In this document: piece by piece, positions 10,443 through 59,600 of the stretch
Position numbering within the stretch: position 1 is the stretch's first letter
Layout: the number at the start of each line of letters is the position of its first letter
DNA from: a virus
Length of the DNA stretch: 64,000 nucleotides
Reading direction: 5' to 3' (one strand)
IMG/VR virus record: IMGVR_UViG_3300012931_000001
Span: 4,711-68,710 of that record
The notes under the pieces: model-generated
The model's input: only the letters and a program-made list of their open reading frames with translations
What the model was told of the DNA's origin: nothing
The model's database searches: none
Made by a program: the position numbers and the translations under genes

Positions 10443-10460
10443 CTCGCCTTTGATGAGTTG

Positions 10461-10691: not shown

Positions 10692-10785
10692 TGTTTGCCG
10701 TCTTTCCGAACTGTCATACATGAGCCGCGATTTTACTCGTCCTCGTTCCTAACCTCTGTAAGCGAGCTGATTCGAACAGCATTCG

Positions 10786-11463: not shown

Positions 11464-12885
11464 TTATTTAGTAAATTCTACCTCAATCTTATTCTTCCTT
11501 ATCTTATGCGGAACCCTGACGTATGTTTGCCGTTCATCAAACCGCAGATAGTAATCGATCATTTCGTCAATTTCCTGCTTCGGAAAGAAGTCGCGCGAGG
11601 ACCAGTTGTTTATCTTCTTGCGAATGTCTGACCGAATCCAACTCCAATGATGCATCGTGACAAACTCTTTTGAGAATGTCATAGTGAAGTCGGTATCCAT
11701 TCTCCGGGTCGGGTCAGACGGGTGTTTAAACGGGATGTCATATTTGAACCGCTGCGAAGTGGATACAAGCAAAGGGACGACCCTTGGGATGCTAAAACAG
11801 TCGTCCAGTAGTTTGCAATTCTTGAACTTGTAGTAATTTTCGTAATAACAGTAAACGGCCTGCGGAAGCCATTCCCGTACCACAGCCTTGGCCCTGGAAA
11901 ATTGGTCAGCCTTGTAGAATTCGTCAGAGTCGCAAATAAGCGCATAGCCGATCCCGCGCGATTGGAAGTATGCAAGTCCTTGGTTACGCCTGACCGTTTC
12001 CTGCTCACGAACAGGCAGGTGTGCCATATACGGGAAAGCTACCTCGGCGTCCACCAGTCCTTCCGCAAGTAGCGCCTGTATCTCGGCTTTGTCTAATGGG
12101 CCAATGGGTTCGCCAAGGTAGCTTGTTTCTGAAGTGAGTAATGCAATCTCATCAACATGCGGGCGAAGCTCTGCGATAATCGTCCGCAGATGCTCCGTGC
12201 CCTCGTAAGTAATAATGCCCATTCCGACTTTTATCTTTTCATCCCAATCAGGTAGCGTTGCAGCCCACGCTCGCATCTGCAGGTTTGCTTCATTATTTGA
12301 AAACCCAGACTCTTTCGGATGAAAAACCCACACAGCATCATCAACGATATTTTTCAGTCCACGATCTCTTGCTCGTTTACATAGATACTTATCCGTGCCC
12401 CATCCTATCCGATTAAGTTCAAGCGGAACCGAGAACCCCAGGGTTGTCCTAAACATCTGGAACCACCCCTCAAAATAAGGTACTTCCCTGAAGTTCCCGG
12501 TATTTCTGCAATAACCATAAGAATGAGATCGCCCTGAACTATGGCATGATGGCTGATAATTTCCAATACTCGGATTTATCGCCACGGCTTTCATGCGCTC
12601 AATCAAAAAGGCTGCTGCTTGGTCCGTAATCTGTACATCTGAAGTGATGATGCAGCACCATTCATAAGGCCCTGCTTTCGCCTTTTTTACAGCCTCGTTC
12701 CACATTCCCCCGTAATAGATATTTTCAAAATGAATTGCCACTGGGCATGGCGGCTCGGAGCCTGAATCAAAAATGTACGTTCGGAAGTACGGCTCAAAAA
12801 TAGACCTTAATCGCTGCGCGTTTTCGTTGTGGTTGTAGTTGAAAATGGTGACGACAATTCTTTTGGGTGATTGCTGGTGGTTCAT
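11464..12885 (-). CDS. Two-domain GT-A (GT2-like) glycosyltransferase
   Basis: Likely start MNHQQ at 12885. Domain 1: IFDSGS, ITSDV, GWGTD, VFHP. Domain 2: MGIITYE, ETVRRNQG, CDSDEF, MHHWSWIR. No TM helix seen. Confidence 0.75.
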   Translation of the reverse strand: MNHQQSPKRIVVTIFNYNHNENAQRLRSIFEPYFRTYIFDSGSEPPCPVAIHFENIYYGGMWNEAVKKAKAGPYEWCCIITSDVQITDQAAAFLIERMKAVAINPSIGNYQPSCHSSGRSHSYGYCRNTGNFREVPYFEGWFQMFRTTLGFSVPLELNRIGWGTDKYLCKRARDRGLKNIVDDAVWVFHPKESGFSNNEANLQMRAWAATLPDWDEKIKVGMGIITYEGTEHLRTIIAELRPHVDEIALLTSETSYLGEPIGPLDKAEIQALLAEGLVDAEVAFPYMAHLPVREQETVRRNQGLAYFQSRGIGYALICDSDEFYKADQFSRAKAVVREWLPQAVYCYYENYYKFKNCKLLDDCFSIPRVVPLLVSTSQRFKYDIPFKHPSDPTRRMDTDFTMTFSKEFVTMHHWSWIRSDIRKKINNWSSRDFFPKQEIDEMIDYYLRFDERQTYVRVPHKIRKNKIEVEFTK

Positions 12886-13922: not shown

Positions 13923-15482
13923 TTATTTAGCTTGATTGTTCGCTCCCTCCCCAGAATCTCCAGCCTCCTCCACGACAGTTGGATCGCTGGCCGCTGTCCG
14001 TTTAGCCTCAGCGTCTTTTACGGCTTCTTCTTTTGCGGCGGCCTCCTCGGCCTCTTTTCTCAGTCGCTCAATCTCCATCGGATTATTAAACGGGATTTCT
14101 CCGGCGCCGGTTTCGACCGAAGTCAGTCCGGCGTTTTTGGACATACAGATGTTCGTAATTTCCTCCGTGATATTTTTCGGCACATACGGTTCAAGCAGGT
14201 ATGTCATCTTTATTTTATTGAACTCGGAATCATTCTCGATTTTCGCAACCAATTCCTTGAATATCGAAATTAGGCGCATGAATGCTGGTCGCAATTCGGC
14301 AATCATGTTAGTACTCCATTGAACTTCGCGCCAGTATAGGTTGCGAATAAACGCGCCTGTGTTCTCCCCGGCTTTCAGTTCCTTTGGCTCGATAACCACG
14401 ATACCCAACGTCTCCCAGAGCAGGTCGAGGTTTTTTTCCAAGTCTACGGTAAATGTATTGCTCGCGTCGGCAGGTTGCAGTATCTCAGCCTTTGCGTCGG
14501 TGGATTTTGCGGCGATGGTCTTCCCCATCTGCCCGACAGGCGGCAGGTTTAGAACTCCACCTGCGACGAAAAGAATCTGGTATGCAAAATACTTGTTGTT
14601 TTCGCCGAGGTCGGAGAGTATGCGTTCGACCCGTTCGATGCCGTCTTGACCCGGTCCCCAAACGACATCCGGTATCCGCCAGTACATGACGGGGCATTGC
14701 GTTCCTCCGTGCGCTACATGACTTGTGTGCGTGAATCCATCCTCGGATTCGTCAAGGTTCTTTCCTTTCAGTATTTTAACGGCCTTATCCACGAATTTCT
14801 GGAACTTTCCGGAAAAATCCTTCTGTATCCAAACGTCAATATATGTCGGCCCGTAAATTTCGACCGTCGTGACTCCTGCGACTTTCAACATCCGGACAAA
14901 GACGTCTTTTCCATCCTCGTCCTTGGTCATGCAAAATACGTCGCCTTTTTCGTAGGAGAACACCTTGTATTGTACCACTCCGTTTTCGGCTGACAAGTAG
15001 ATGGCTGCGTCGGCTGTCCCGAACAGAGCGCGCCCCCATGAGTTCAGCGCGTCGGTCATCCCTGCCATAGACCAATGACTCCTCAGCAACGATACGCGAT
15101 CGTCATTTTTCGGCTCCTTGCCCTCCGGCCCGAACCACATCTCGTTTCCGAACGTGTGCGTGACCTTGTGACGCAGGACGCCTTCCTGAAATCCGACGGC
15201 GACTCGCTCCACGTCATCCCATCCGTCAGCGACGTTCACTTGGGAGGCGGCGTCGTAACGGAACTTCTGCCGCATGGATCGGTAAGTGCAACTGTTGATT
15301 TTGTGGGCGGTAGGGATGAGTTCGTTCAGGAAATCCGATTGCTTGAGCTTATAGACGGTTCCGTTGTCGAAAACCATCTCCTCCGTATCAAGGGAGGAGC
15401 CTGCTTCCACCCTTGGGATGACGGTTCCCGGGGCGCGGCGCGTCCATACAGGTTTTTGCAGATAATCCCTGATTTTTGTCAT
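13923..15482 (-). CDS. Portal protein (SPP1 gp6-like)
   Basis: About 519 aa from MTKIRDY; VAVGFQEGVLRHKVTHTFGN, WGPGQDGIE, PYVPKNITEE, LTSVETG; acidic coiled C-terminus. Confidence 0.85.
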   Translation of the reverse strand: MTKIRDYLQKPVWTRRAPGTVIPRVEAGSSLDTEEMVFDNGTVYKLKQSDFLNELIPTAHKINSCTYRSMRQKFRYDAASQVNVADGWDDVERVAVGFQEGVLRHKVTHTFGNEMWFGPEGKEPKNDDRVSLLRSHWSMAGMTDALNSWGRALFGTADAAIYLSAENGVVQYKVFSYEKGDVFCMTKDEDGKDVFVRMLKVAGVTTVEIYGPTYIDVWIQKDFSGKFQKFVDKAVKILKGKNLDESEDGFTHTSHVAHGGTQCPVMYWRIPDVVWGPGQDGIERVERILSDLGENNKYFAYQILFVAGGVLNLPPVGQMGKTIAAKSTDAKAEILQPADASNTFTVDLEKNLDLLWETLGIVVIEPKELKAGENTGAFIRNLYWREVQWSTNMIAELRPAFMRLISIFKELVAKIENDSEFNKIKMTYLLEPYVPKNITEEITNICMSKNAGLTSVETGAGEIPFNNPMEIERLRKEAEEAAAKEEAVKDAEAKRTAASDPTVVEEAGDSGEGANNQAK

Positions 15483-15501
15483 ATCGGAGGTGAAATTATG
15501 G

Positions 15502-15582
15502 CAAATATAATCGTAAAAAATAACAAATGCAAAAAATAAATGGGAAAATGTTTGGATATACAAGTGTTAAGTGTTACATTTG
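15502..15582. promoter_or_regulatory. Back-to-back consensus promoters (portal on minus; early/middle operon on plus)
   Basis: Minus: TTTG-N20-TATATTTG (15533-15502). Plus: TTTG-N20-TACATTTG (15551-15582). Confidence 0.8.
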
Positions 15583-28816: not shown

Positions 28817-29461
28817 TCATAGGTTGAGTAGATATTCCGTATACTGGGTTGCAATTGCATTCGCAATACCTTTGAAGGTTTTTGATCTCGCTTTTCTTCT
28901 TTCTTCTTTTGGTAGTTTAAGCGTTTCAAAATGCAATTTCCCATCCGTCCTACCAGATTTGTGCATTATAATATTTGGTTCGACAATATTTGTATATTTA
29001 AGTTTCGGAAGACTTTTAAGCCAAAGGCATGTCCCCTTCCGTTCCGCGTCTCCAAAATGATATGGATGTATAATCTGGTCTGGCTTCCTATATCTTGTGC
29101 TCATTATCCCGATAGGGTTCTCTATGGCAATATGTTTTATGTTCGCATTCGCCAGATTCATAAAAAACTCAACCGCTTTTTCCCTATCATCATGTATGGT
29201 TGGGAACCGCTCCGAATATTCAGGTTTATAGTATTTATTTGCAGCCACGGTTAATCTGGTACATTCAGGATGCGCAATCATTAAATCCCACCCATCATTT
29301 ATAACCTCGAAAACATCCCGCTGTATATGCCACTCCGGATGTCCACCGCTGCACGGGAGCAGATCGCAGCTATACGCCTCTATTCCTAATTTGCGAAACT
29401 CAATACATACAGCCTGAGATTCCTCGCACGCCACCAAGACCCTGATTTCTTCTTTTTTCAT
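28817..29461 (-). CDS. Short phage DNA cytosine-C5 methyltransferase-like protein
   Basis: Start MKKEEIRVLVACEESQ; SCDL, DLMIAHPECT, IAIENP, RSKTF..IANAIATQ. Confidence 0.7.
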   Translation of the reverse strand: MKKEEIRVLVACEESQAVCIEFRKLGIEAYSCDLLPCSGGHPEWHIQRDVFEVINDGWDLMIAHPECTRLTVAANKYYKPEYSERFPTIHDDREKAVEFFMNLANANIKHIAIENPIGIMSTRYRKPDQIIHPYHFGDAERKGTCLWLKSLPKLKYTNIVEPNIIMHKSGRTDGKLHFETLKLPKEERRKARSKTFKGIANAIATQYTEYLLNL

Positions 29462-29462
29462 A

Positions 29463-29879
29463 TTATATAAATTTATTTCTATCCCACACAAAAGACCCTG
29501 TCTTAACCTTTTCCAGATACGCCAAGACTTTGCGCGGGTCAATCCATACGGGGCGTCCTTGGATGATTGATTTGAACTGCTCGAAGTCGTCACAGAAACC
29601 GCCGCAGTCACAAACTTCAAGGATCCATTTTGCCTGGTTTGTGACGCGCGAAACCGTGTGGCTTTCACCCGGATATTTCATTTCGATCCCAATCAATCCC
29701 CGCCCTTTCGGCTCATATTTCAGTAGGTCAGAAACTCCGACGGTCATTCCGAGAGAGTTCTTCGCCCCGGTGTTTGCGCCCTCGTTAAAAGTGGCCCAAA
29801 GAAAGTGAATATCTTGATACCACTCGTTTCTGTACCATTTCACACATTCTGCTTGTAATCTACCTTCGGGTTGTGCCAC
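29463..29879 (-). CDS. VRR-NUC nuclease
   Basis: EGRLQAECVKW, GVSDL, IEMKY (PD-(D/E)xK). Confidence 0.8.
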   Translation of the reverse strand: MAQPEGRLQAECVKWYRNEWYQDIHFLWATFNEGANTGAKNSLGMTVGVSDLLKYEPKGRGLIGIEMKYPGESHTVSRVTNQAKWILEVCDCGGFCDDFEQFKSIIQGRPVWIDPRKVLAYLEKVKTGSFVWDRNKFI

Positions 29880-31147: not shown

Positions 31148-32605
31148 TCAAAAAGGTAATTCCTGTTCTTCTTCCGTAAATACACCCAATCCGGTTTCCT
31201 TCTCTGGTTCTCCGATTTCATCCCCATCGTTGAAATCGATCTTATAAAACGACCAGCCAGTGCTTTTCTTGCCAAAAATCCGAAGTGTCGGTTCATATGT
31301 AAAATTCTCTTGTCGTATATCATCGAAAAAATTATTCTTGGATTTCGGGGTGTTCCGCCAGCTGGTGCAATATTCGACGTAATTAGAGAATAAGTCTACC
31401 GAGTGCATGCAATCCCTATGCCCAGCCTGCCCAGGCTTCAGCCTTCCTACCCACCCTTTTTCTTCAAGGAACGACAGGACGCTACTGGAATGCTGTCTCA
31501 TTTTTCTATTCGCATCTTCCATCTTTTCCGATTCGGTAAATTGCCCATGTGATTTTACCAGCCTTTCCCGCCCCTCCATTATCCAATTCAGAATTCCAGA
31601 TGCCTCGGTCCTTAATTTCAGTTCCACGTATCCATCAGCGGACTTCCCCTCAAATGTCTTTTCAAAACGGACAATCTTATATCTCCTCCAGTTCCCATTC
31701 GTCGAGTCGGTCGTAACCGGGACCTTGTTTATGCTCGCCATCATCAGCGGCATCTCCCTTGCCGTGAACGGAGCCATTCCGATGGGTCGAGCCATGATTG
31801 GATCATAGGATGTTATCGCCTTAAATTGCCCCCCAGAAAAGTCCTTGTCTCCCATATCTGAGACGTTGTTCAATAATTTACCGTTTGCCACAGCCGTGTT
31901 GTAATTTGCATCATTGGTGGTACAAAGCTGTGGAAAGGAAAAGTTCGTATAATTTTCTTGCCCAATAACGTAATTTATAGTATCTCCGAGTACCGTTTTC
32001 CCATTTGCCCCCGTTCCGTAGAGAAACATGGCGACCGCTACTTTCATATCAGCTCTGTCGATAAACATCAGCCCAAAAAATTCCTGCAATACCTTTATTG
32101 AATCCTCGTCGGATATGACTTCGGTCAAAAATTTTCGCCACTCAGGGCATTTCGCTTTTGGGTCATAGCCGTGCGGAATGTGCGTTCTCGTCATCCACTC
32201 CGGTCCATGCTCGTGCGATTTCATGTCGTTAAGCGTCAGCACGCAGTTATTGAAGGATATTATACTTTTCGACGGCTCAAACGACTTCATTTTGCGCGAC
32301 CGGTATATACGCTTAAAAATAGACTCAATGCTTTTCATTTGATATGGTATACCAATCTCAAGCTCCTCAAGCAGCCCGCAAATTAAATCATATACATTAT
32401 TGCTACTTAATTTCTCGTACTTTATTCCGTTGTATATAAATAATGTTTCCTCTCCTTTTCTGATTCCATTCTCCGATGCAACCCTTGCAATTTCAATAGC
32501 AATCTTACCCTCTATCACCACATCCACCTTGGTGTGTTCAGCCCCAAGGCCGCCAAGGGTGGAGAGGGCTTGGGATAGCCTTCCTATTACATGGTCCATT
32601 TCCAT
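31148..32605 (-). CDS. SF3 D5/P4-family replicative helicase
   Basis: D5_N region (SFNNCVL, YDPKAKCPEW), Walker A GTGANGKT, MASINK, NWRR; winged-helix tail. Confidence 0.88.
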   Translation of the reverse strand: MEMDHVIGRLSQALSTLGGLGAEHTKVDVVIEGKIAIEIARVASENGIRKGEETLFIYNGIKYEKLSSNNVYDLICGLLEELEIGIPYQMKSIESIFKRIYRSRKMKSFEPSKSIISFNNCVLTLNDMKSHEHGPEWMTRTHIPHGYDPKAKCPEWRKFLTEVISDEDSIKVLQEFFGLMFIDRADMKVAVAMFLYGTGANGKTVLGDTINYVIGQENYTNFSFPQLCTTNDANYNTAVANGKLLNNVSDMGDKDFSGGQFKAITSYDPIMARPIGMAPFTAREMPLMMASINKVPVTTDSTNGNWRRYKIVRFEKTFEGKSADGYVELKLRTEASGILNWIMEGRERLVKSHGQFTESEKMEDANRKMRQHSSSVLSFLEEKGWVGRLKPGQAGHRDCMHSVDLFSNYVEYCTSWRNTPKSKNNFFDDIRQENFTYEPTLRIFGKKSTGWSFYKIDFNDGDEIGEPEKETGLGVFTEEEQELPF

Positions 32606-32974: not shown

Positions 32975-33814
32975 TTAAATTTTTGACAATTTCCAGTCAG
33001 TCGGGTAATAATCGTCATTTCCGTACCTTTCTTGGAATGCATCCGATATATTTCTCCCGCAATGTACGGCCTCCCCATCCATTATATTCTTGACATACCA
33101 CATCTGCCACCACGAGAATGTGGAGCTACCGCCAATGAAATAGTCGCAGCTTGCACCAAGTACGAACTGATCCATAGGGTCTGAGTGGTACATCGGGCCG
33201 TGCAGGTGAGTATTGTTCGGCTCCGGGTAAAAGAACGGCTGGTCGTGAAAATAAGAGCGGCACCACGCGATGTCGTCGGAAAACACCACGACCTTGCTGT
33301 TCTTTTTCCATGAAGGATAAAACTTGCCAAGCGTTTCAAAATACCACGTCTCTGGTATCTGATAAAAAACCTCGTGCCCGACAAAATCTCCACGACGGAT
33401 TCCAAGCCCGACAAGCTGGGCTTCCTTGAACCCATCATATTTATCAAGGGTCGATTCTACGGCGTCGCGGCTAAACTGGAACTTTTCTTTCACTATTCCG
33501 ACGTCAAACCACTTCTCGGATTGCAGAAAGCAAGTCAGATCAAAATTTATAACCTTATTTCGATTGCTGCGAAAAAACTCATACATGTAATTTTTCGCTG
33601 TATCAGAATATCCCGGCCCCGGTGCCTGAAAAAGCAGGTCGTACTCGGTATCGGTAGTCAGTTTCGGCGGATGCGCAAGATATTTCCATAGAAAATATTT
33701 AGCCGGCATCTCCACCTCATGCCCGGTCGCCTCGGCCACGCTCACGATGGTCGCGTACACAAAAAGCCAGTTCCCGAGTCGTGTGTGCTGCCCAAATTGG
33801 TTGCATCGTATCAT
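32975..33814 (-). CDS. GT11 alpha-1,2-fucosyltransferase-like protein
   Basis: RLGNWLF, FLQSEKWF, GIRRGDF, VFSDDIAWC, SSTFSWW: the conserved GT11 motifs. Confidence 0.85.
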   Translation of the reverse strand: MIRCNQFGQHTRLGNWLFVYATIVSVAEATGHEVEMPAKYFLWKYLAHPPKLTTDTEYDLLFQAPGPGYSDTAKNYMYEFFRSNRNKVINFDLTCFLQSEKWFDVGIVKEKFQFSRDAVESTLDKYDGFKEAQLVGLGIRRGDFVGHEVFYQIPETWYFETLGKFYPSWKKNSKVVVFSDDIAWCRSYFHDQPFFYPEPNNTHLHGPMYHSDPMDQFVLGASCDYFIGGSSTFSWWQMWYVKNIMDGEAVHCGRNISDAFQERYGNDDYYPTDWKLSKI

Positions 33815-34545
33815 AGGAATCTCCTCCTATTTTTAAATCCATTTTGAAAATATTCCTCATGCGCAGCGTCTGGGAGTCCATAATGAAAATTCCAACCTTT
33901 ATGCTTGCTATCCTCGGCTATTCCGCGATCACGGATCTCGTGCTGCCTTGCAAGCCCCGTGTCCCAGTTCTGCCACTTAGTATGATACAGCGGATAATGG
34001 ATTTCGCTCCATTTTGGCTGTACCACATCTCGCATCGTGGGTTGGCAGGTGTGGCTGCCAGGGGCAAAATTCATGTCGAGAACCGAAGGCGCGTGAAAAA
34101 GGACGCTCTTACAATACCCTTCGGATTCGATTCCCCAAAATTCATCCGGCTTGTCATCGTCCGCGCCAAAGAGTTCTACTCCTTGGCATTTACACAGGTT
34201 CCATTTTTCGCCGTCATTGCAATCAAGTAAATCTTGCTCTGTAATATCGATAAGTTCATCGCTGTCGCATACGATTATAAACATCGCATTAGACCTTTTC
34301 CATGCGTTGTTCCTTAAAGAAATCAAGGCAGATTCATCCATTTTTCCACCGGTATCAAATTGGCGAAACTTCACCTTGTTTATATCGCATACAAATCGCG
34401 TTTCATTACCATCCGTTGACATGTTATCATGAACGGTTATGTCGCACATGGGCACTCTTTCTCGATACCATTTAATAAAACGCTCGACGGTTGCCGGCTC
34501 GTTCCAGCTTGTTGTGAAAATTTCTAATAGTGGCCGCATAATCAA
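33811..34545 (-). CDS. GT2-like glycosyltransferase
   Basis: WNE, VHDNMSTD, RNNAW, IVCDSDE, PGSH, LYHTKW. Confidence 0.8.
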   Translation of the reverse strand: MIMRPLLEIFTTSWNEPATVERFIKWYRERVPMCDITVHDNMSTDGNETRFVCDINKVKFRQFDTGGKMDESALISLRNNAWKRSNAMFIIVCDSDELIDITEQDLLDCNDGEKWNLCKCQGVELFGADDDKPDEFWGIESEGYCKSVLFHAPSVLDMNFAPGSHTCQPTMRDVVQPKWSEIHYPLYHTKWQNWDTGLARQHEIRDRGIAEDSKHKGWNFHYGLPDAAHEEYFQNGFKNRRRFL

Positions 34546-34907
34546 TCTTTTTTGGTTGTAATAAAATCAAGAATCTTTTTGTTTATTTCGCGCATATCAG
34601 CCAAGTGTGACTCTGTTGCTTGTAGTTTTCCAGTAATAAGATTTTCTTCCGGGGTTTTTATGCCCATGCTGTGTTGATTGTCAGATATAGCCTTAAAAAG
34701 ATGCGCGGCAAATTCGGAAGGCAACGATAAAAACGGCTTCAAATACGAGGATCTAACGATACACGGGTCGATTAATGTTTCGATAAGTTTGCCCCTGTTT
34801 TGGGATATATTCTTCGATCCGTCCACGCAACGCTTTGTTACCCACACAGCTACACTTCTTGTGTTGAAATCATTCTGGATATGAATTTCGTACTGTTCCA
34901 TTTTCAA
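34542..34907 (-). CDS. Hypothetical protein
   Basis: 121-aa ORF coupled to both neighbours. Confidence 0.6.
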   Translation of the reverse strand: MKMEQYEIHIQNDFNTRSVAVWVTKRCVDGSKNISQNRGKLIETLIDPCIVRSSYLKPFLSLPSEFAAHLFKAISDNQHSMGIKTPEENLITGKLQATESHLADMREINKKILDFITTKKD

Positions 34908-35464
34908 TCTTTTTTAAACACAATCAAACAATCATCCCACCTGCCCTTTATATGGCGCAGATTCACTATCCAGCATTTTCCGCCATCCGGTGCCAAGGCG
35001 ATCAGTTCCTCTTCGCGGCCTTCGGGAATATCCTCGATAATTAGGAATCCGCCAGGCTTGAGATAAGCGGGGAAGTTTTGAAGGGCGTAGATTTGGTGTG
35101 ATTTTTCATGACTTCCATCCTCGATTATAACGTCAAACATGCCATGCTTAAAAATCCTATCCCAATATTCTGGACTATAAGCATTAACCGTCCATAAATT
35201 CATATTATAAAACCAAGATGGGATATTACTTTCATTAACGCCAGTTCGGTCAACTATATCAATTCCGCATATATGCGCACTCTTCATGTAGTCTCGCATT
35301 AGGCGAATTGATCCGCCTTTGTAGACTCCAATCTCAAGGATATTCAACTCCGCATTCTCTTTCCCCGCAAATAATTCATCATAGAACGCTGCATACGAGT
35401 GGCCGGAGAACTTATCCGTGCAAAATAAAGCCGGATTCGACGCTTGTAATTCTGAAATGCGCAT
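34904..35464 (-). CDS. Class I SAM-dependent O-methyltransferase
   Basis: TDK..GHSYAAFY, ILEIGVYKGGS, GIDI, FDVIIEDGSH, LKPGGFLIIEDI, resembling sugar O-methyltransferases. Confidence 0.85.
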   Translation of the reverse strand: MRISELQASNPALFCTDKFSGHSYAAFYDELFAGKENAELNILEIGVYKGGSIRLMRDYMKSAHICGIDIVDRTGVNESNIPSWFYNMNLWTVNAYSPEYWDRIFKHGMFDVIIEDGSHEKSHQIYALQNFPAYLKPGGFLIIEDIPEGREEELIALAPDGGKCWIVNLRHIKGRWDDCLIVFKKD

Positions 35465-35470
35465 AATTAT

Positions 35471-35940
35471 TTATTTAGTTGTTGTTTTTATTAATTTAGG
35501 TAATTTCCCATTAGATATTATCCACTCATGTACAGCTTGCAATAACCCTCCTTCTCCAAAATCTGCCGTAATTGTGACCATCCCTATATCATATAATCTT
35601 GAATTTTCGCTTACTAATGGGTGTATTATAACATCTCCAACCCCATGCATATCCACCTTAGTCCAATCCATAGACTCAAAAGCTTCGAGACGCAGAACCC
35701 TATCCTCATTATTGATCGCTTCGTTTTTCACAATACCCCAGCCCGGTGTTTAATGATTGCTTCGATGATTTCATTGAAATCCACCGATTCGCATAGCCTG
35801 CCAGACGTGCATGAGACAAGGGCTACTCTATCCTCGTGGACAACCACAGCAAGTTTATCACTGTTTGATCGAAACGCGTTTTTATCGTGTTTTTCGAACC
35901 CAAGCGCCTTAATCAGCGCGATAAAAGATCTTTTTGTCAT
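35471..35940 (-). other. Two small hypothetical genes (35471-35731, 35728-35940)
   Basis: Coupled ORFs. Confidence 0.5.
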
Positions 35941-35954
35941 TTTTCTTATTTTAT

Positions 35955-36509
35955 TTAATCAATTTTAAAAACACCCATCCTATACAACGCCAGCACAATG
36001 TCAGCCTCATGGAAAGCATCGTCCGCCCCACGGTGTTTTTCGACGTACCCGTGATCCGTGCCGAAGAAATGATTATACGCCTCCTCAACTTTCGGCCATT
36101 TATAGCTTCCGTACTTTCCGGACAGTTGGCATATATCCGTTGACAAGAGCATCAGGCATGGTAGCTTTCTCGGAAACCTTACCCCGCGACTTTCCAAGAA
36201 GTTGAAATCAAACGCCCGATTGTATGCGGTTGCCCCAAGTGGGTAAGCGTCAAGTATGGACTGGATTTCCGGGATCAATAGCGCAAGTTGCGGGGAGTTC
36301 TGGATCTCCTCGACGCTCATGTACCCATTCGTTACGATCCAACTTTCCTCGACTTCCTTGCGGGTGATCGGGCGCTCATGCACCACTTTGTCAAACAGGA
36401 TCTTCTTTTCACCGGATTCAAGGTTGAGTGAGATGATCCCAACTTCGACAATCTTGCCACCCTTGCCTTGAAAATCCGTGGTCTCAATATCTATTATAAG
36501 TATCTCCAT
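35955..36509 (-). CDS. DEDDh 3'-5' exonuclease (DnaQ-like)
   Basis: IDIETT, AYNRAFDFNFL, HRGADDA. Confidence 0.88.
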   Translation of the reverse strand: MEILIIDIETTDFQGKGGKIVEVGIISLNLESGEKKILFDKVVHERPITRKEVEESWIVTNGYMSVEEIQNSPQLALLIPEIQSILDAYPLGATAYNRAFDFNFLESRGVRFPRKLPCLMLLSTDICQLSGKYGSYKWPKVEEAYNHFFGTDHGYVEKHRGADDAFHEADIVLALYRMGVFKID

Positions 36510-36514
36510 GTCAG

Positions 36515-37102
36515 TTAGTTATGAACGAATAGCGCGCGCGCTATATGATACGCCACCAACCCTCTCCGAGCGCATTCCTTTGCGCAGGATTCAGCGTAGA
36601 ACCCGTCGGCACTAAAATCGTCATGTGTAAATCCTACGAATTTTGAGATGTCGGCTCGGACTATAAAACATCCCATATCCAAACCACCTTCAAACAGTCG
36701 GCTGCGGTGGTATCCGTAGTTCAGATGCGAGTGAATTGTATCTGAATAGATAAATCCAGCATTCTCCTTTTTGGTCGCCTCCATCATTTGAGAAACAAAT
36801 TGGGGACAATAATAGTTGTCTGAATTAGATAATAAGACCCAATCGTTTTCGTCTGCAACAAGCGAGTTTAAAAAATATCTGCGGTTGATATGCCCGTATT
36901 TCCCATTCCGTTTTAATGTGCAAGTAAATTTTATACGGGGATCGTCTTTATACCGATCCATTATTTTATGTACAACTTTCGGCGCCGGCCCGTCGTGGAC
37001 TATGAGCATCTCCCAGTTAGGGTTAGTCTGTAACAAGAAAGAACCTATGGATACCTCCAGTTCGTGGGTGTGATTGTATGTTACAAATATTGATTTAAGC
37101 AT
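36515..37102 (-). CDS. GT2 family glycosyltransferase
   Basis: FVTYN, WEMLIVHDGP, GHINRR, LSNSDNYY, LDMGCF, SADG. Confidence 0.85.
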   Translation of the reverse strand: MLKSIFVTYNHTHELEVSIGSFLLQTNPNWEMLIVHDGPAPKVVHKIMDRYKDDPRIKFTCTLKRNGKYGHINRRYFLNSLVADENDWVLLSNSDNYYCPQFVSQMMEATKKENAGFIYSDTIHSHLNYGYHRSRLFEGGLDMGCFIVRADISKFVGFTHDDFSADGFYAESCAKECARRGLVAYHIARALFVHN

Positions 37103-39629: not shown

Positions 39630-41552
39630 TCAAATTTTGTGCCTTTTCAGAAAGGCGGGTTTTACTTCGGAGTTGAAAAATTCGGTGGCTTCGGATTCGG
39701 TGCGGAAATAATTGCCAAGTTCGTAGTGGTACCCATCTAGCCTATCACGATAGTCCTTTCGAGGTCTCTGGAGTCCATCGGAATCAATATAATAATATGA
39801 TTCACCTTTATCCGCCCTCCATCTTTTCGTCTCCACCTGTTTCTTTTCGGCGTTCCATATTTTACCGTCTTTGTCAAGGGCAGAGATGAGCCGTTGGCGC
39901 TCAGGCGAGGTCGCTAGTCCACGGATGCCCGAAAATTCTCCACACGTAATAATACAGTCTTCATCAGTATATAAATTGCCATCTTCGCTAATTGTGGCGT
40001 AAGGAAAAACACGGCCAGCCTGCTCTTTTTTGAATATTGTAATCCATCCATTATTTTGTGTGATTATATCCCCATCCTTCGGTTCCCATTTTTCCACTTT
40101 CGTCAACACCTTCTTCTTGGCGTTCCACTTGTATCCAGCCTCGACCATCTTTTCAAAAAATAGGCAGCGCTCTTCACGGGTGGCCAACCTGTAATCGAAC
40201 CCAGTGAATATGCATGTACCAGTAAAAAACCTGCCACCATAAAGGAGGGCATAAGAATGAAGCGTATTCAGGAGCTGGTTTTTTCCTTTATATATCAGGA
40301 TCCCCCCGCCCTTCAGTTTCACCACGTCCCCATCGGTAGGGGCCCATGCTCCACCATTCGTGCTAAATAATATTCCAAATTCAAACATTTTTTTAGACTC
40401 ATCTTTTGATAGTTTTTTTGGCTTAACTCCGCTAAGATCTTCCTCTATTTTATCAGCTATCGTTTGTCCGATGCTCTCCGCCGCGTAATTCTTGCATTTA
40501 GCACACGCCATTTTCTCCTCAATAGATCGTCTATCAATCGGCTTACTCAATACGGACCTAAAGTATTCGCTTAGAATATCAGTAGATGGTGTTTGGGTGG
40601 ATTTATTTATCTTCACCACCTCCATCTTCACCACCTCTCCATCGGTAGGAGTCCAAGGTTTAGTCGCAGTCAGGGTGCTCATGTGTGCGCCCGCCATTTT
40701 GTCCAGGTTGTCGACCTGCATCCGCGCCGTCATTTTCGGTATGGACTTAATCGGGGCGTATATTCCCCCTTTTTTCACCGTATCTCCCGCTTCATGAGAA
40801 TTAAGAACAGTCCAAAATCCCCTATCCCATACCGATGCTGTATTCGCTTTTTCCACCACCTCCATCTTCACCGCATCCCATCGGTATCCGGCTTTCTTAA
40901 GTTGGTTGAAAAATTCTCGGCGCTGTTTTTTGGTCGCAAGCCTCGGGGTGTGGGCAGCCATGATGGCGTCGGTTGAAATTCCGCCTCTGTAAGGCACCAA
41001 TAGAACCTTTATGTTCCCCGCATTCGTGCGCTCTTTATATATATACGTCAATCCCTGCCCGTTGTCGCACACGTCGCCTTTTTTCGGTACCCATTTCTTT
41101 TCGCCGATCTCCGCCGCATAAAACCATAAACACTCCACCTTTTCCGGTTCCGCCAGCGCAATATATCGATTCCCCTCCATCCTCATCACCATTCTTTCCA
41201 ATCCTGGATTATTTTCCGTGATCGGAGCATCCGACACCAGCATCATGCGCGGAAACTTATTATTGCTTTCCATATTTTTTTTTGGATACCTTTCAAAGAA
41301 CGCGTCAAAGTTCCGATTAAATATCACATCCCTCCAAAACGCATCCCGTTCCGTCGTTGCCCACCAGTCAAAACCACCCGATAATCCGCCAGCGTGTCTC
41401 GTCTTTTCAAACACCCCGACATCCCTCTTTCCGATCTGTTTTTCCTGGTTTTCGAGCATTTTTTCGACGATTTCGTCTGGAAAGCCCTGTAGATCGCCCT
41501 TCCAGCCTTTTTTTTCTTCGTAATTTTTGCGGTTCTCGCGCGCTTGTTTCAT
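39630..41552 (-). CDS. 640-aa mosaic protein with three ~75-aa repeats
   Basis: Repeat W.P..GD[VI]...LAT..[EQ]R...G..W[DN]A.K; extra small domains at both ends. Confidence 0.8.
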   Translation of the reverse strand: MKQARENRKNYEEKKGWKGDLQGFPDEIVEKMLENQEKQIGKRDVGVFEKTRHAGGLSGGFDWWATTERDAFWRDVIFNRNFDAFFERYPKKNMESNNKFPRMMLVSDAPITENNPGLERMVMRMEGNRYIALAEPEKVECLWFYAAEIGEKKWVPKKGDVCDNGQGLTYIYKERTNAGNIKVLLVPYRGGISTDAIMAAHTPRLATKKQRREFFNQLKKAGYRWDAVKMEVVEKANTASVWDRGFWTVLNSHEAGDTVKKGGIYAPIKSIPKMTARMQVDNLDKMAGAHMSTLTATKPWTPTDGEVVKMEVVKINKSTQTPSTDILSEYFRSVLSKPIDRRSIEEKMACAKCKNYAAESIGQTIADKIEEDLSGVKPKKLSKDESKKMFEFGILFSTNGGAWAPTDGDVVKLKGGGILIYKGKNQLLNTLHSYALLYGGRFFTGTCIFTGFDYRLATREERCLFFEKMVEAGYKWNAKKKVLTKVEKWEPKDGDIITQNNGWITIFKKEQAGRVFPYATISEDGNLYTDEDCIITCGEFSGIRGLATSPERQRLISALDKDGKIWNAEKKQVETKRWRADKGESYYYIDSDGLQRPRKDYRDRLDGYHYELGNYFRTESEATEFFNSEVKPAFLKRHKI

Positions 41553-41782
41553 AAATAGTTTTTTTAATGTTAATTTATATAAGAAAAAACCAAATGTAAA
41601 TTGATTTTTTTTCTTTGTCGTTTGCTTTTTTAGGCTTCCATCTATTTTTCTGTCAAGTGGTTAACAATTATACCCCCGTTTAAGGTATGTAACCTGACAC
41701 GACTTTTCCGAATACAAATCTACTCCAAAAATCCAAATAATCATAATAATTATCCACATTATTTTGTTAAACAACGTTAAAT

Positions 41783-44156: not shown

Positions 44157-47100
44157 TGCGTTTAAATAAAACGAAAGAAAATGACATACTATAAAGTTCC
44201 TGTAAAATTAGACCAAAAACGGCTTAAAAATGGTTGGTTTTTGGTTGCAAATGAATTGCTTACTGAAAAAGAGGCATGCAGACGTGGTGTCAACACCGAA
44301 AAGCTAAATCGGATTGAAATTTCACGGCGTAAAATTTACTGGTTTTTCGGAGTGAGGTTTGAAATTAAATAAACACGAAAATGAAAAAGAAACAATTTTC
44401 AGGAAAAGTCCAGGGTGAATATTTGGACATTGAGCGGATTAACAAAAATACCGCGCGGGTAAAACACAAAAACGGGGAACGAGTTTTTCTTTGCCCGGTA
44501 AATTTGCACCCCTTCAATCAGTGGTGCACAACTATGGAAATGAACAACAGAACGCCGTTTGATGAATTTGTTGATATGTACGAAAACTATAATTGTACCG
44601 ATAATAAGACGGGAAAATACGCCGCCTTTTACCGGGTGATTGAGTAACAAATAGCCGTCGAAGTTTAGCTTTTTTTAGCCCGGTGGGTTTACGGGCGACG
44701 GAACGACTTTAGTATTAACAAATAAAAATGTGATCATGGATATTGATGAATATTTCCCGTACGACTTCGACGAATCCAAAAAGCCGGAGACACTTGAGCA
44801 TTGCATAGAAAGAGTAAATCGTTATTTCGGCGTAACTGATTGTCCGTATAATATAGATTTATTAAAACAAGTACTAGACGAACGAAGAAATTTGAGGGTT
44901 TTCCTCCCGTCGTATTTTTGGAACAAACGGTACTACGAATTACTTGAAAACGCAACAACAAAAGGAAAATTAAATGATTGGGATCAGACATCCACTATCA
45001 GATAGTTTGACGTAATGTTTTTTAAACGAATAAAAACGCAACAAAATGAGATACGTACAATTTTTAACCATGAGCACCGGATATATTCAGGGCTCAATTC
45101 CGCCGCGATTTTCAGACGACAACCGGAAACCAATTGAATTATTGGGATCAGACGGCTGTTATCCTGCAGATGGACGATTCGGATTAAACCGAATAATTTT
45201 TGAGGCCGAAAAACGGGCAAACAATCTGAAAAATATCCACTCAATTGTTGGGTTCCAGATTATTCAGGCATTAAGTTTTCCACAAAACGGGAGGATTATT
45301 TATGAAGAAAATTATAGAAATAGATAGCCCGAGCGGAGTGAATTCAAAAAGGATGAACGAATTGGTTTTATCCTTTTTGAAGGCCGGAATCAGATCGGAC
45401 GAAATCATCCTTCAGATGAATTTCGTAGCGAACGAAGATGTTGTTAAACAGGTGATGCACGAATTTCACGTGCTGAAAAACAGGGCGGCAATGTCACTGG
45501 ATAAAAGATGGACAAAATGAAGACAAAAACAAAAACGATAAGAGGCTGGGCAAATAAGTCTGACCTGTTGTTTAGCCAAAACTCTGGAAATATCATATTT
45601 ACCGAAAATTTTAGAGAATTGGAATCCCGACTCATTAAAGACGGGTATAAACAATTGAACATAGCGTTTGATACGCTCAGGGGTAAAAACGCGACTGCAA
45701 AAGTCGTCGTAAAAGGCTGGCACTGGAGGGGATCATGGAGTGATCCGACTAAAGAAATTTATGCAATTTTTTATAAATAAAACAATAAAAACATGAAAAA
45801 AGTTGAATTTACATTAGCGCCGGATTTGGCGGCTGAATTTAAAAGTGTTGTCAAGGGATTAAATTTTGTAACCCCGAAATTATTAGGCTATTGCCGGATA
45901 AAGAATGGAGTGGCCGAATTAACACGCGGAGAATTTTTAGGAAAGTATAGGTTTGGAGTCACGGTTGTTCGCTTTGGCGAGCACGATTTCGATGCCTGTA
46001 AAAGTTTTAATACCAGATTTGAGGCTGAAATTTACTGTGATACTTTAACCCACCGATGAGCCCGCGAAAGTCGAGCGAAACCCTACTGAACGGCGGGGCT
46101 TGGAATAAAAACAACTAAAAACACAGATTATGACAAACGAAGAAATTTTAAGCGGCAATAAATTAATTGCTGAGTTTATGAGGTATGATAGAATAGACGG
46201 GTATATCCTGCTATTTCATATCTCTTGGGATTGGCTTATGCCGGTGATTGCCGAGATAACGAACCAATGCGAAGAGCCCGACGAATTGGACGGTGTAAAA
46301 TACGCCTTATTAACGGATAATATTTCCGAGGCATATATTTTTGTAGTAGATTATATAAATAGAATACATGAGCACTAACCTATTTTTCACCGAACCAACC
46401 CCGGAACCACGCACAAAAATTCGTGTCAGCTTCCGGCAAGAAAAAAGCGGCGGCGACGTTTTCGCTGCATTTCTTGACACTTGGCCTATTCAGGGCTACG
46501 AACACACGGGGCAACATTGCGAATGTTCGCCTGACTGGATCCGAAAAACCAAACCCGCAAAAGATTATCGCGATTTGCTTGCGGAATTAGAGCGGATCGG
46601 GTATGATGTAACGGTTATGAAGATGTTTCCCAAGCCGAACCCGGATAAAATAACCTGCCCGAAATGCGGGGAAATATTCACTCCGAGCCGGACGGAATAT
46701 GAACAATGGTGCCGGGATGAGGACAGGAATTTGCGCCTAAGTTTCGACGGTGCGGAAAACGTCAAGAGAATGAGTATAAAGGAGTGGGGATTGAAAAACC
46801 ATAAATGTAAGGCAAGATGAAACCATACAACGAAAAAAGAGTTGAGAAGTTATTCGCAGAATTACGCGAGTTTGGGTATATTGAATCGCATTTATTCAAA
46901 TGGTCGGCAGGAGATATTGATTCTTGCGCGCAGGATGCCGGCGTAAAATTACCGGAAATGACAGACGACAAAAAGGTTGAATTGCTGTCTGAAATTATCG
47001 AAGGAATTTCCGAGTCGGTAATCGAGGATATGAACGACGCGATTTGTATTGAATTATTTGAACGCTTTAAGACTGAATAAAATGGTTAAAGTTTATTTTC

Positions 47101-51441: not shown

Positions 51442-52182
51442 ATGGCACGAGAATATATATCATGGATCAGAGTATCCACAAAAAGGCAGGGAATCAGTGC
51501 GCTTGGCCTTGACGCCCAGCGCGAAATAATCCAAACATCAATGGGTGGGATCACTCCGATTGCAGAGTTTAAGGATATATACACCGGAACGATCCTGTCT
51601 AAATGTACGGAACTCAGAAAGGCCATCAATATGGCAAAAGGAGGTGGATACCTACTGGTTGTAGCCAAAGCCGACAGGTTCAGGACGGACATAGAGGCGC
51701 TACAGATCTTGGACGAAATGGGAGAAGAAAATATCCGCTTTTGCGATTCGCCGGGGAGCAGCAGGCTTATTTTGACCGTTCTTTTTGCAGTATATAGGCA
51801 GCAGGCTTACATCGGGAGAATAAACACGAAAAATGCGCTCAGGCAAATTCAGAAAAAGATAGACACAGGGGAGCCTCACTACTCGAAGGTGAGCAAAAAT
51901 AGGGTAACGCAACTTGGGCGTCCTCGTGGGTTAAAAGCAAAGGAGGGCTGGGCGGATCAGTCCGTCGCGCAAAAAACAGCCAGCAAAGACCGGATCGGAT
52001 CAAACCCGATCAGGCGCAGACAGTGGCTGCTTATGTCGGAGTTGCGTAACCGTGGTGACTCACTGGTGGCGATCGCCGGAACGTTAAACGCCACCGGTGA
52101 GAGAACGCCAAGTGGACAGGACTGGACAAAAGGGTCGGTAAGTCATGCGCTGAATAAATGGAGTAAATATTTTGAAAAATAA
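51442..52182 (+). CDS. Serine recombinase (resolvase domain plus recombinase-type DNA-binding domain)
   Basis: IRVSTKRQ catalytic Ser motif, GLDAQR, VVAKADRF; C-terminal IAGTLNATGERTPSG..W. Confidence 0.88.
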   Translation: MAREYISWIRVSTKRQGISALGLDAQREIIQTSMGGITPIAEFKDIYTGTILSKCTELRKAINMAKGGGYLLVVAKADRFRTDIEALQILDEMGEENIRFCDSPGSSRLILTVLFAVYRQQAYIGRINTKNALRQIQKKIDTGEPHYSKVSKNRVTQLGRPRGLKAKEGWADQSVAQKTASKDRIGSNPIRRRQWLLMSELRNRGDSLVAIAGTLNATGERTPSGQDWTKGSVSHALNKWSKYFEK

Positions 52183-56695: not shown

Positions 56696-59600
56696 TCACC
56701 AATCGTTATCATACTCGGCACCGAGCATTAACCCGTACCCTAATATTCCGGCCGTCTGAGCGGGATAAAGTAAATTATACAAATAAAAGCATTCCCTTAT
56801 GCACCCCCCGCTCAAAAGGGTGTCTAGCCCGCCGCAATAGAAATATATGTCGCTATTATCATTCGCGTTAATAAGTGTAAATTTTTTCCCGACCGATAAC
56901 CCCGTAAATCTATACCTGTAGGTTCCAGACAGGACGCGAAAAATTACAAGATCAACAGGAAATCCGGCAGCCGTACCGCTAGTCCCGTATAATGGCAGAC
57001 TATAATACGTGTTACTGTTCGTGTCAGTTGCGCTTGTAAGGGTCGCTGAATAATACGGGCTACTCCCAATCCCGTTCACGTAATAAATAGCCGTCGAGCC
57101 GTCAACCACGACCGCGGTTCGTCTTGTTGATCCAAATACCCCGCGGCACCAAACGTCGCCAGTCCTGAACTTCCATGCGTTTCCTGACGAATCGACTCCT
57201 TGGTGGGATAAATCGCCATGGAACATGAGCCCCTCGTCTCCAAGGACTATTTGAACAGAAGGGTCTTCATAGGCTTGCAAGCTTACGAACGTACCGGTTA
57301 CGGCGTCTAATTCTCCTGAGAATATTCCAGATGATGCGTTAATTGCTCCTTGTATCACGGCGTTTCTCGCAGTAATAATTCCAGTACTGCCATCTAATGT
57401 TAAATTTGGAACAAAAAGCGAACTATCCCAATTCGTACTTGCGTCACCGTTTATTGTCCCGGACTGCGAAATCATTTGCGCATCTTTGTAGATAAACTCT
57501 GCAATATTTGCGTTATCAGCCAAGAGTGTACCTGTTGCGATATTCTCGAAGCTGTTTAGCGCCTCCCAATTGGTGGTATCCGTGGATGGCGCCGTGCTGG
57601 ACGTAAAAGTTCCGACGCTTGTTTTAACCGCATAATACACACCATTTGTGTATTTTACAACATCACGCTGAATACAGTTTCCTATATATGAGGTTCCGCT
57701 CACCCATGATCCTTTACGAATTTCAATAGAGTTAAACACCCTTGCGACCGAGATGGATATAGAATAAGTAACGCCTCCGTAGATGATTGATACCGTAACA
57801 TAGCCGACAGTTACGGTTGACAAAGTGAATCCAGTGAGATTCACCGTATAACTATAAGAGTCAGCGTGCGTGTCCGACCCGTAAGCCATATTCGTGACGG
57901 TTTTTCCATATGACGTCCAGCTTGCATACGGAATAGCCGTTGTGCCGCTAAACAGTTTTACGCTGATTGCTTTTGTAAAAGCGTTAGTGGATGGCGTAAC
58001 AGATAGGCTCTGGCTTTCGCAATAGATTGAAACCGTTGCTGCTCCGGTTGCCCCCGCCGCTCCAGCCAAAGATTTAACCACCGTAAATCGTTGCGTTAAA
58101 ACCTCTACACCTAATCCGTCAATATCCAGCGTTATGTCCGCGTAGGCGTTATTCGCTGTTATTGATTCAGCGTAGACCTTGATATATTCGGAACTGGAAC
58201 CGAGTTCAGATAAGGCGGTCATACCTGCCACCGATATATCTATGCCTGTATCTATTAAATCGACAATATCAGATCCCCTATATACCCTAACCTCGGTATA
58301 AGCCAAGTCCAACGCTTCGGATGTGTAAGTCCCGTCACTGGCGCACTGAATATTGTGCGCCGGATTACTCAATACCATCGTTAGAGCGTCGGAACCGTCA
58401 ATAACTCTTGATATTGTCCCTGTGTCGTAATATGTTCCATCTGTATATTTACATGATAAGGTTGTAAACGTTGCCGACGCAGAGGTTATTGTTAACGTTG
58501 CACTATTTACTGACACATCTGTTGGAACTGTTGCGGAAAACGTACCCCCATCAACGCTAAACATCCACGCCATTGTGCCAACACTCCCCTGCGTTGAGGC
58601 GTTTACAGTGATTGTCGTTGGCGTCGTTGTCCCATCCTTTGCTTGTGATATAATATTGCTCGATGCGGTTACCGTTACGAGTTTCGCTGCCGTACCCGCT
58701 GTTCCGGTGGCTCCAGCCAAAGATTTTGCGATAGAAAAACGCTTCTCAATACCCCATGCCTCATCGGTGTCGTTTATAGTTATATCGGCGTAGCCAGAAT
58801 CTATACTGGAGTCCATCGACGTAAGTTGAACGTCCGCCCCGTTTAGGGAGAATGTGAGCCCCGAGCTTGGCGAAACAGCCTCTATATAATAATCACTTCC
58901 TATTGTCAATTCCGTCCCTCCCCTGAAAACTTTGACTGCCGTAACGGCTTTTGCCAGTTCTCCCGAATATAGGTTGCCCGAGCTGTCTGCCGAAACGGTG
59001 TGCGACTCGTTAGTTAACATTACTGATATTGCGCTACTTCCGTCTTCCGCCAGCGCAATAGACAAGGTGTCAGAAATAGAGCCGTCGGTCGCCTTTATTG
59101 AAAGCGTGTTAAACGTGACGTCCGCGGTGGAGATATTGACCGACAAGCCTGTTCTTGATAAGCCGGTAGGAACTGTGCTTGAAAAGTTACCTCCGTCTAC
59201 AGAATAGGTCCACGCTGATATAGATGTGTTTTCGCCCACCCCTACTACGCTAATAGCCGTTGGAGTACGAACCCCAAGCTCCGTTTCGAGTATCATTTGG
59301 GATGTGGCTGAAAGGGTTATACGTTTTGCCGCCGCGCCGGTTGCTCCGGTTTTTGACTTAGTAATAGTCTGCGTCGTTGACATTGTTACGTCGCTTCCGT
59401 CAGCCCTGTTTATTGTTAAGGGATACGTAATCGTGACCACATCCTCTGAATTCGACATTGCTGAATGAACATTAACCAAGGCTGTCGTTGTTCCACCCCC
59501 ACTTCTTGAACCAACAGTGATTGACCCTGAGGGGGAAACAATTGGTGTACCTATTGTAAATTTTCCAGCAGCCCAGACATAACTATATTGCAATAACGTT

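Follow-up and report, generated by a model that had tools for sequence, protein, structure and literature searches.

Cassettes of soluble glycosyltransferases (GTs) and methyltransferases are already well known in phage genomes. Freeman et al. in 2023 reportedly described O-glycosylation of the virion in mycobacteriophages Che8, Corndog and Myrna, a modification said to affect immune recognition, and mycobacteriophages provided the only demonstrated phage virion glycosylation found in the literature. A summary of that work places the glycans at the C-termini of the capsid and tail-tube subunits (PMC12619734). In the Cluster J mycobacteriophages, a set of such genes, represented by gp16, gp17 and gp23 of phage Omega, lies between the major head and connector genes and varies in content among relatives (PMC3706429; Pope et al., 2013); no demonstrated target of these enzymes was found in the literature read. 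The eukaryotic giant virus PBCV-1 encodes A064R, A061L and A111/114R, cytoplasmic multi-domain GTs with a predicted fucosyltransferase domain and sugar O-methyltransferases, and its major capsid protein bears a methylated, deoxyhexose-containing glycan whose genes are expressed early and at a distance from that of the capsid protein (PMC9614988). Cyanophages carry GT11 genes, whose function is untested and is usually ascribed to modification of the host cell surface (PMC12801897). In this study, we analysed a window of 64,000 nucleotides (positions 4,711–68,710 of IMG/VR virus record IMGVR_UViG_3300012931_000001; all coordinates below refer to this window unless stated otherwise), in which a cassette of GT and methyltransferase genes at 32975–37102, together with a separate two-domain GT at 11464–12885, very probably forms one glycan-assembly system.

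The contig that contains the window is viral, 71,215 bp long and carries a 123-bp terminal direct repeat; therefore, the genome is complete and circularly assembled. The phage is uncultured, comes from wetlands and has relatives among the phages of Bacteroidales; its exact sequence was found only in wetland metagenomes, from two studies. The minus strand of the 4-kb stretch holds GT11-type, GT-A (GT2-like), sugar O-methyltransferase and GT2 genes, interspersed with a DnaQ-like exonuclease and three unknown open reading frames (ORFs) of 121, 86 and 70 amino acids. The original prediction, made from the sequence alone, had named a GT11 gene, two GT2-type genes and a sugar O-methyltransferase within 4 kb and, counting the two-domain GT, five GT domains. 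The gene boundaries match exactly, the families are supported, and hidden Markov model searches and structure prediction between them account for the five domains. The enzyme genes are as follows.

11464–12885, minus strand: two-domain GT-A glycosyltransferase of K4CP-like architecture, 473 amino acids (AlphaFold2 and Foldseek)
32975–33814, minus strand: GT11-family glycosyltransferase of the alpha-1,2-fucosyltransferase type, 279 amino acids (PF01531, phrog_2644)
33811–34545, minus strand: GT-A-fold glycosyltransferase, GT2-like, 244 amino acids from a TTG or 242 from the ATG at 34539, which is the likely start
34904–35464, minus strand: sugar O-methyltransferase of the MycE/TylE type, predicted to depend on S-adenosylmethionine and metal, 186 amino acids (Methyltransf_24)
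36515–37102, minus strand: SpsA-like GT2 glycosyltransferase, 195 amino acids (PF00535, 39.2 bits against a cut-off of 23.3, 8.7e-10)

On sequence grounds the GT11 assignment is solid. The Pfam family Glyco_transf_11 (PF01531) matches with 48.6 bits against a cut-off of 23.9 (8.7e-13), over profile positions 159–264 of 298 only, and the full-length match is to the phrog_2644 glycosyltransferase family (8.8e-30). The motifs GIRRGDF (residues 138–144), VFSDDIAWC (177–185) and STFSWW (231–236) are readable and correspond to HxRRGD[YF], FSDDxxW and SxFSWW, which we take to be the motifs of alpha-1,2-fucosyltransferases; in the first of them His is replaced by Gly. PF01531 was found in all but one of 114 GT11 homologues, most of them on phage-sized contigs, and the enzyme is only ~37% identical to the one homologue named bacterial by a source. 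The gene belongs to a phage-borne clade and was not captured recently from a host capsule locus. Cyanophage GT11 genes are the sole homologues in the cultured-phage collection (97 records, 25–29% identity); these 'alpha-1,2-fucosyltransferase' genes, distant in sequence, often adjoin nucleotide-sugar epimerases and other GTs. The present enzyme is predicted to add a capping 6-deoxyhexose. GT11 enzymes require a sugar acceptor, so this step implies, as had been anticipated, a chain of more than one sugar.

The two GT2-type genes are supported in different ways. The 195-residue protein passes the PF00535 threshold and matches SpsA (1h7l, 9e-4); its DxD position reads NSDN, with one Asp, and a scan of viral contigs with this protein gave no confirmed relative. 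The 244-residue protein falls below the PF13704 threshold (21.1 bits against 27.5), but a GT-A fold is clearly predicted for it: the AlphaFold2 model, with a predicted local distance difference test score (pLDDT) of 89.8, matches SunS, TarP, SpsA and K4CP at a Foldseek probability of 1.00, and ThuS was also matched. Its family profile matches GmaR (1.9e-8) and TarS in the PDB, and the family alignment has invariant D38, S41, D43, D92 and E95; of the DSDE motif, the first Asp and the Glu are invariant. The methyltransferase exceeds the PF13578 cut-off (35.2 bits against 26.3), also matches PF13489 and finds its best PDB matches in MycE (3ssm, 2.2e-13) and TylE (2.3e-7). Its IEDGSH and IIEDI align with IDDGSH and VIEDM of MycE, the DGSH and ED motifs, whose residues presumably have the catalytic and metal-binding roles given to them in the MycE literature. 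The alignment covers residues 191–325 only of the MycE chain and the N-terminal auxiliary domain of MycE and TylE (~160–190 residues) is missing; the enzyme is best read as a MycE/TylE relative consisting of the catalytic domain alone.

The 473-residue protein encoded near the portal gene had no match in Pfam, PHROG, NCBIfam or PDB sequence searches. Its AlphaFold2 model (pLDDT 90.2) comprises two GT-A domains, with two Rossmann-like halves, and the top Foldseek matches all have two GT-A domains: K4CP, which leads, COLGALT1, LH3, heparosan synthase 2 (HS2) and LARGE1. Many viral multi-GT proteins are also matched. Among 14 full-length homologues D40, S82-D83 and D182-D183 are invariant in the N-terminal half and D319-S-D321-E322 in the C-terminal half. 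Prevotella Lak megaphages have unannotated ORFs that share ~34% identity with the C-terminal GT domain (11464–12264).

Two neighbouring genes serve as landmarks in comparing this phage with its relatives.

13923–15563, minus strand: portal protein, upstream of the two-domain GT (phrog_64 portal protein, 1.3e-18)
31148–32605, minus strand: primase/helicase, just downstream of the cassette (phrog_864 DNA primase, 2.5e-64)

In every relative that has the two-domain GT, the gene follows the portal gene, immediately or just downstream of it in L008, L009, L011, G003, L036 and L037, and the enzyme is the conserved member of the system. The other genes vary in place and content. The 16-kb contig L030, with a GT11 that is 60% identical, has GT2, Methyltransf_24, a 248-residue GT-A ORF and GT11 contiguously, followed directly by the primase. 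G001 (capsid 76% identical; 92% complete) has the two-domain GT as well as GT2, together with a methyltransferase and one further GT. Its GT2 orthologue occupies the site of the cassette upstream of the primase and is followed by a non-orthologous set, made up of a TylF/Methyltransf_24 enzyme (only 25% identical) and a PF13704/GT92-type GT that BLAST shows to be unrelated, and then by the primase; G001 has no GT11. GT2 orthologues are 61–63% identical in G001, G003 and L011. In G003, L011 and L036 GT2 is a neighbour of the two-domain GT in the region that separates portal and terminase, on the portal strand, and in G003 and L036 methyltransferases join GT2 at this site near the portal. L036 (71.7 kb) gathers two TylF-type methyltransferases, several ORFs of 233–247 residues, a PAPS-reductase-like gene and GT2 in one island. 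That island (L036:11606–12484 and L036:13893–17783) is flanked on one side by the two-domain GT and on the other by a terminase gene with a LAGLIDADG/Hom_end element inside it.

The primase junction recurs as an insertion site in L030 and G001. Two complete but more distant relatives, G002 and G004 (capsid ~51% identical), have no two-domain GT, PF00535 match, GT11, GT-A or methyltransferase gene. Since the cassette varies among relatives and is absent from these two, a phage of this basic plan can do without it, and the system appears to consist of a conserved core enzyme and swappable cassettes at two hot spots. Outside the lineage, the GT-A gene is again paired with GT11, at 42–48% identity, in the viral contigs L001 and L003, as it is in L030; next to the pair L003 has, further on, genes for a two-domain GT, a GT4, a nucleotidyltransferase and a mutase-like flavoenzyme. 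In addition, the crAss-like contigs L005 (5393–19693), L006 and L007 have arrays of six or seven consecutive GT genes that end in a GT11 (43% identical) and lie directly upstream of the portal-to-capsid block of 744-residue, 917-residue, 419-residue and Crass_capsid genes. A 241-residue ORF upstream of GT2 in G003 (46205–46930 of that contig; L027:6205–6930) resembles the MptE/Maf-like family PF01973; because its score of 28.3 bits is below the cut-off of 34.6 and PDB support is absent, it was dropped as evidence of a flagellin-type protein GT. Because the genes are linked in several arrangements across relatives (L030, G003, L011 and L036), we regard them with considerable confidence as one functional unit.

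The closest analogue of this system is the GT/methyltransferase insert of the Cluster J mycobacteriophages. Omega gp16 is a two-domain GT that resembles the Escherichia coli chondroitin polymerase, as does the K4CP-like enzyme described here; gp17 is a Methyltransf_24 homologue of our methyltransferase (32.6% identity, 3e-9); and gp23 is a PF13704-like GT. In both cases all of the enzymes are soluble, close relatives differ in content and carry non-orthologous methyltransferases, and genes are placed in the morphogenesis region. Unlike the Omega set, which is located between capsid and connector, the present genes are split between sites near the portal and upstream of the primase; the two-domain GTs lack BLAST similarity, Omega has no GT11 and the host phyla differ. 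Phage-encoded soluble GTs and an O-methyltransferase also recall the virion O-glycosylation reported in mycobacteriophages, from which the present putative system differs in that the C-terminal acceptor idea is unsupported here and a GT11 is added. PBCV-1 shares virus-encoded cytoplasmic multi-domain GTs and sugar O-methyltransferases, with no sequence homology shown, but is a eukaryotic giant virus with N-linked glycans that combines GT, GT and methyltransferase in a single protein. What is particular to this phage is the GT11 capping enzyme, the division of the system over two loci and the exchange of cassettes around a conserved two-domain enzyme in a phage lineage of the Bacteroidota type.

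Together, the genes probably build a short, methylated sugar chain of the fucose type. The order of the steps, the identities of the sugars and the acceptor are what we infer in the following scheme. Assembly would be soluble and cytoplasmic and would draw on nucleotide sugars of the host. The two-domain GT-A enzyme, perhaps together with GT2 (36515–37102), would initiate and elongate a short chain whose acceptor is not attached to a lipid; the GT-A enzyme (33811–34545) would lengthen it, the GT11 enzyme (32975–33814) would cap it with a fucose-type 6-deoxyhexose, and the MycE-like enzyme (34904–35464) would O-methylate a sugar hydroxyl. The likeliest acceptor would be one or more virion structural proteins, so that the particle bears a methylated glycan specified by the phage, as a parallel to mycobacteriophage virions and the chlorovirus capsid. 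Candidates would be the capsid protein (4792–5973), a 214-residue protein (5977–6621), the putative tail tube (2513–3106) and a 139-residue protein (3110–3529). The assignment to the virion is tentative, and we place it somewhat short of an even chance.

The proposed solubility is consistent with the Kyte–Doolittle profiles, in which the 19-residue maximum is at most 1.21 for the five GT and methyltransferase proteins and for the 121-residue ORF, and 2.36 for a lysis-region protein. The earlier claim that the enzymes lack transmembrane helices is thus borne out, and they are predicted to be soluble, without a membrane segment. Soluble enzymes might nevertheless remodel the host envelope by acting on undecaprenyl-linked intermediates of capsule, lipopolysaccharide (LPS) or another glycopolymer at the cytoplasmic face, and the infected-cell surface would then be altered, for example to block superinfection or to keep progeny off debris. 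O-antigen and capsule loci typically hold GT11 and GT2 enzymes, and the best structural neighbours of the GT-A enzyme include TarP, a prophage-encoded glycosyltransferase of wall teichoic acid. The GTs between the portal and capsid genes of the Bacteroidales 'Gratiaviridae' have been read in this way in print, without a test (PMC8008677), as have the GT11 and LPS genes of cyanophages (PMC12801897). However, neither the cassettes nor their surroundings contain an initiating phosphoglycosyl transferase, a flippase, a polymerase, an exporter or any membrane protein. A six-frame search of the complete genome gave no match to GtrA (PF04138) at E ≤ 1, in agreement with the predicted absence of a Gtr flippase pair, and Gtr-type serotype conversion is excluded, since GtrA is missing and the cassette encodes no membrane protein. 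The phage lacks an integrase of the usual kind, and a scan of ~185,000 species genomes found no prophage copy, its only hit being an 8.5-kb contig of a metagenome-assembled genome (MAG); lasting serotype conversion is therefore unlikely. The phage-borne GT11 clade likewise speaks against recent derivation from a host capsule locus, and an envelope target leaves the conserved position beside the portal unexplained. We consider such a target unlikely, though deserving of serious weight.

The position of the cassette in a replication operon, beside the primase and the exonuclease, draws attention to DNA as the substrate, with the GTs building a mono- to oligosaccharide on a modified base that would evade restriction. 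A phrog_757 'DNA methyltransferase' is encoded 3.3 kb away, a PAPS-reductase-like gene is present in the L036 island, and phage GT-A relatives of LPS and teichoic-acid enzymes place up to three sugars on 5-hydroxymethylcytosine (bioRxiv 10.1101/2023.12.21.572611). Known DNA glycosylation clusters (T4 alpha/beta-GT, the arabinosyl-5hoC system of RB69 and DLP3, and methyltransferase/5mYOX/GT clusters) resemble the present genes in their soluble GT-A enzymes, sequential sugars and frequent proximity to replication genes. The described routes, however, all depend on prior hydroxylation of the base, either by a homologue of thymidylate synthase or by a 5mYOX/TET enzyme (PMC13326640; bioRxiv 10.1101/2023.12.21.572611), and a base-hydroxylating enzyme was undetected in the complete genome: PF00303 (Thymidylat_synt) and PF12851 (Tet_JBP) had no match at E ≤ 1 in six frames. 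In control genomes the thymidylate-synthase profile scored above its cut-off in 10 of 14 and Tet_JBP in none, which leaves the Tet_JBP negative less validated. The original statement that no hydroxymethylase or TET-like gene was recognised accordingly stands for thymidylate synthase and, with that reservation, for TET-like enzymes. General ORF scans showed no nucleotide-metabolism genes and no recognised phage DNA polymerase, and relatives keep the same enzymes beside the portal rather than beside replication genes. Approximately 65% of GT-bearing phage contigs lack a DNA-modification partner, and Pyle et al. consider contigs without such neighbours less likely to be DNA modifiers (bioRxiv 10.1101/2023.12.21.572611). 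DNA hypermodification is thus a very improbable role. A caveat to this judgement is the phrog_757 ORF itself (28817–29668, minus strand; match at 1e-63), which had no match in Pfam, NCBIfam or PDB sequence searches, and its true start is probably the internal Met ahead of ...KKEEIRVLVACEES.

A virion acceptor is favoured because the enzymes are associated with portal and terminase genes, the crAss-like arrays lie beside structural genes, the hallmarks of the other targets are absent and Cluster J offers a parallel. Several findings weigh against it. The first is the operon already mentioned, in which a putative replication initiator and the primase enclose four of the six enzyme genes, and these have no promoter-like box of their own. 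On the minus strand, the tightly packed order is the 640-residue ORF, ten small unknown ORFs, GT2, the exonuclease, the 70-residue and 86-residue ORFs, the methyltransferase, the 121-residue ORF, GT-A, GT11, a 106-residue ORF and the primase/helicase. Between the box ahead of the first gene and the end of the cassette, one further intergenic minus-strand box occurs, 5 nt from the next start, at 32934. The elements concerned are listed here.

41591–41598, minus strand: Bacteroidota-type -7 box TAnnTTTG, 46 nt upstream of the first operon gene (pattern scan)
39630–41552, minus strand: 640-residue ORF, first gene of the replication operon, adjoining an iteron-like region
35955–36509, minus strand: DnaQ-like 3'-5' exonuclease (phrog_192 DNA polymerase exonuclease subunit, 3.5e-14; RNase_T, 1.2e-4)
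35728–35940 and 35471–35731, minus strand: ORFs of 70 and 86 residues, respectively, with no match in Pfam or PHROG
34542–34907, minus strand: 121-residue ORF (phrog_30489, function unassigned, 5.9e-8)

This position is not decisive, because the capsid-glycosylating GTs of PBCV-1 are also expressed early (PMC9614988). The exonuclease that interrupts the cassette is probably a replication gene outside the glycan pathway; in L030 GT2 and the methyltransferase adjoin with no gene in between. The 640-residue protein, which may be a novel replication initiator, had no match in Pfam, PHROGs, NCBIfam or PDB sequences, the 121-residue ORF had none in Pfam, NCBIfam or PDB sequences, and Atlas searches with either were uninformative.

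The second set of findings concerns the acceptor, for which the terminal Ser of the capsid protein (...HPYGAS) and an S/T-rich composition of virion proteins had been put forward. The capsid does end in this way. After the conserved HPY, it has a tail of two or three residues, which reads GAS, GSA, AAA, ASA or AKA in phages with GTs and TA or AAS in phages without them, in a small sample in which just two complete relatives lack the GTs. The same kind of short tail thus occurs with and without the enzymes, the capsid of the enzyme-bearing G001 ends in AAA, and the expected co-occurrence of GT genes with Ser/Thr capsid C-termini did not emerge from the survey of relatives. Capsid columns and insertions specific to GT-bearing phages were also sought; GT-bearing phages have three Ser/Thr columns of their own, but the phages that lack GTs have four, and hence there is no capsid acceptor signal. 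Enrichment in Ser and Thr is moderate only, at 20.8% in the putative tail tube and 22.7% in a 2128-residue ORF, probably a tail protein (56696–63082, the second giant ORF of the window), against a proteome mean of 12%. In the putative tail tube and the adjacent protein, comparison of relatives showed neither a conserved Ser/Thr tract nor a conserved tag at the C-terminus, and the C-termini of the putative tail tube vary. Across all ORFs, the Ser/Thr tracts and tags amount to a T5 run and some short tracts, located in the 2128-residue protein and the putative tail tube, none of them conserved; the T5 run (residues 96–100 of a 139-residue head–tail region protein, 3110–3529, minus strand) is absent from the orthologues in L008, G001 and G003. 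Finally, the nearest structural neighbours of the GT-A enzyme include protein and peptide GTs (SunS, ThuS and GmaR) as well as TarP, the prophage enzyme that acts on wall teichoic acid, so that no single target can be read from the fold.

With no acceptor signature in the capsid, the putative tail tube or its neighbour, some other soluble acceptor has to be weighed, such as a non-structural phage protein, a host protein or a small molecule; alternatively, the genes could be independent accessory genes with no single pathway. The highly variable content of the cassette, lacking altogether in two complete relatives, would suit this explanation, and SunS and ThuS, which head the structural matches of the GT-A enzyme, attach sugars to secreted peptides. 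It is at odds with the co-travelling of the genes in several arrangements, which suggests a shared pathway, and with the need of GT11 enzymes for a sugar acceptor, and the ORF scan recognised no glycocin-like precursor or exporter gene. We judge it fairly improbable. As for the virion glycan that had originally been proposed, its premises of soluble enzymes, a single system and a missing DNA-hydroxylating enzyme hold, and the argument from the acceptor termini has fallen away.

A broader possibility, to be held loosely and more doubtful than not, is that a lineage of Bacteroidota-type phages carries a modular 'glyco-island', in which an initiating two-domain GT near the portal stays constant and non-orthologous cassettes replace one another at two fixed hot spots, one lying between portal and terminase and one upstream of the primase. 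Virion glycans would then differ from one close relative to the next, as phage glyco-serotypes analogous to O-antigen loci, and virion glycosylation would extend beyond the phages of Actinobacteria in which it was found reported. No described or tested case of such glycosylation in Bacteroidota-type phages was found in the literature, which gave only the host-capsule hypothesis for the 'Gratiaviridae' GTs (PMC8008677), in keeping with the original statement that none had been described. If present in these phages, it would bear on particle stability, on recognition by host receptors and defences and on the antigenicity of candidate therapeutic phages, as well as on the reading of very many orphan GTs in viromes. 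The conserved core enzyme and its swappable cassettes provide a concrete set of enzymes and, in the relatives, natural 'knock-outs'.

A host of the Bacteroidota type is suggested by several features of the genome. Parabacteroides phages PF672P1 and PF672P2 have a large terminase with 53% identity to the one encoded here; the sole cellular-genome match of the capsid, among the ~185,000 species genomes, is the 8.5-kb contig, which belongs to a Bacteroidaceae MAG; DUF4494 and DUF3127 proteins are encoded; and a pattern scan found TAnnTTTG boxes ahead of operons. Cultured phages gave no nucleotide match to the 10 kb around the cassette. A small serine recombinase of 246 residues (51442–52182, plus strand), with a Resolvase domain and a partial Recombinase domain, is kept in the relatives G001 and G003; typical large serine integrases are longer, and the protein may be an invertase. 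The remaining ORFs of the window matched only lysozyme, DUF6874 and a DnaJ zinc finger. An ORF of 2218 residues spans the origin of the circular contig, from 1–1689 of the window (minus strand) on to position 70835 of G000. Three tRNA genes, Ala-TGC, Ser-TGA and Ile-TAT, are located at 10460–10859 (minus strand) between the region of the two-domain GT and an HNH gene, the middle one being assigned by ARAGORN as tRNA-Ser(tga).

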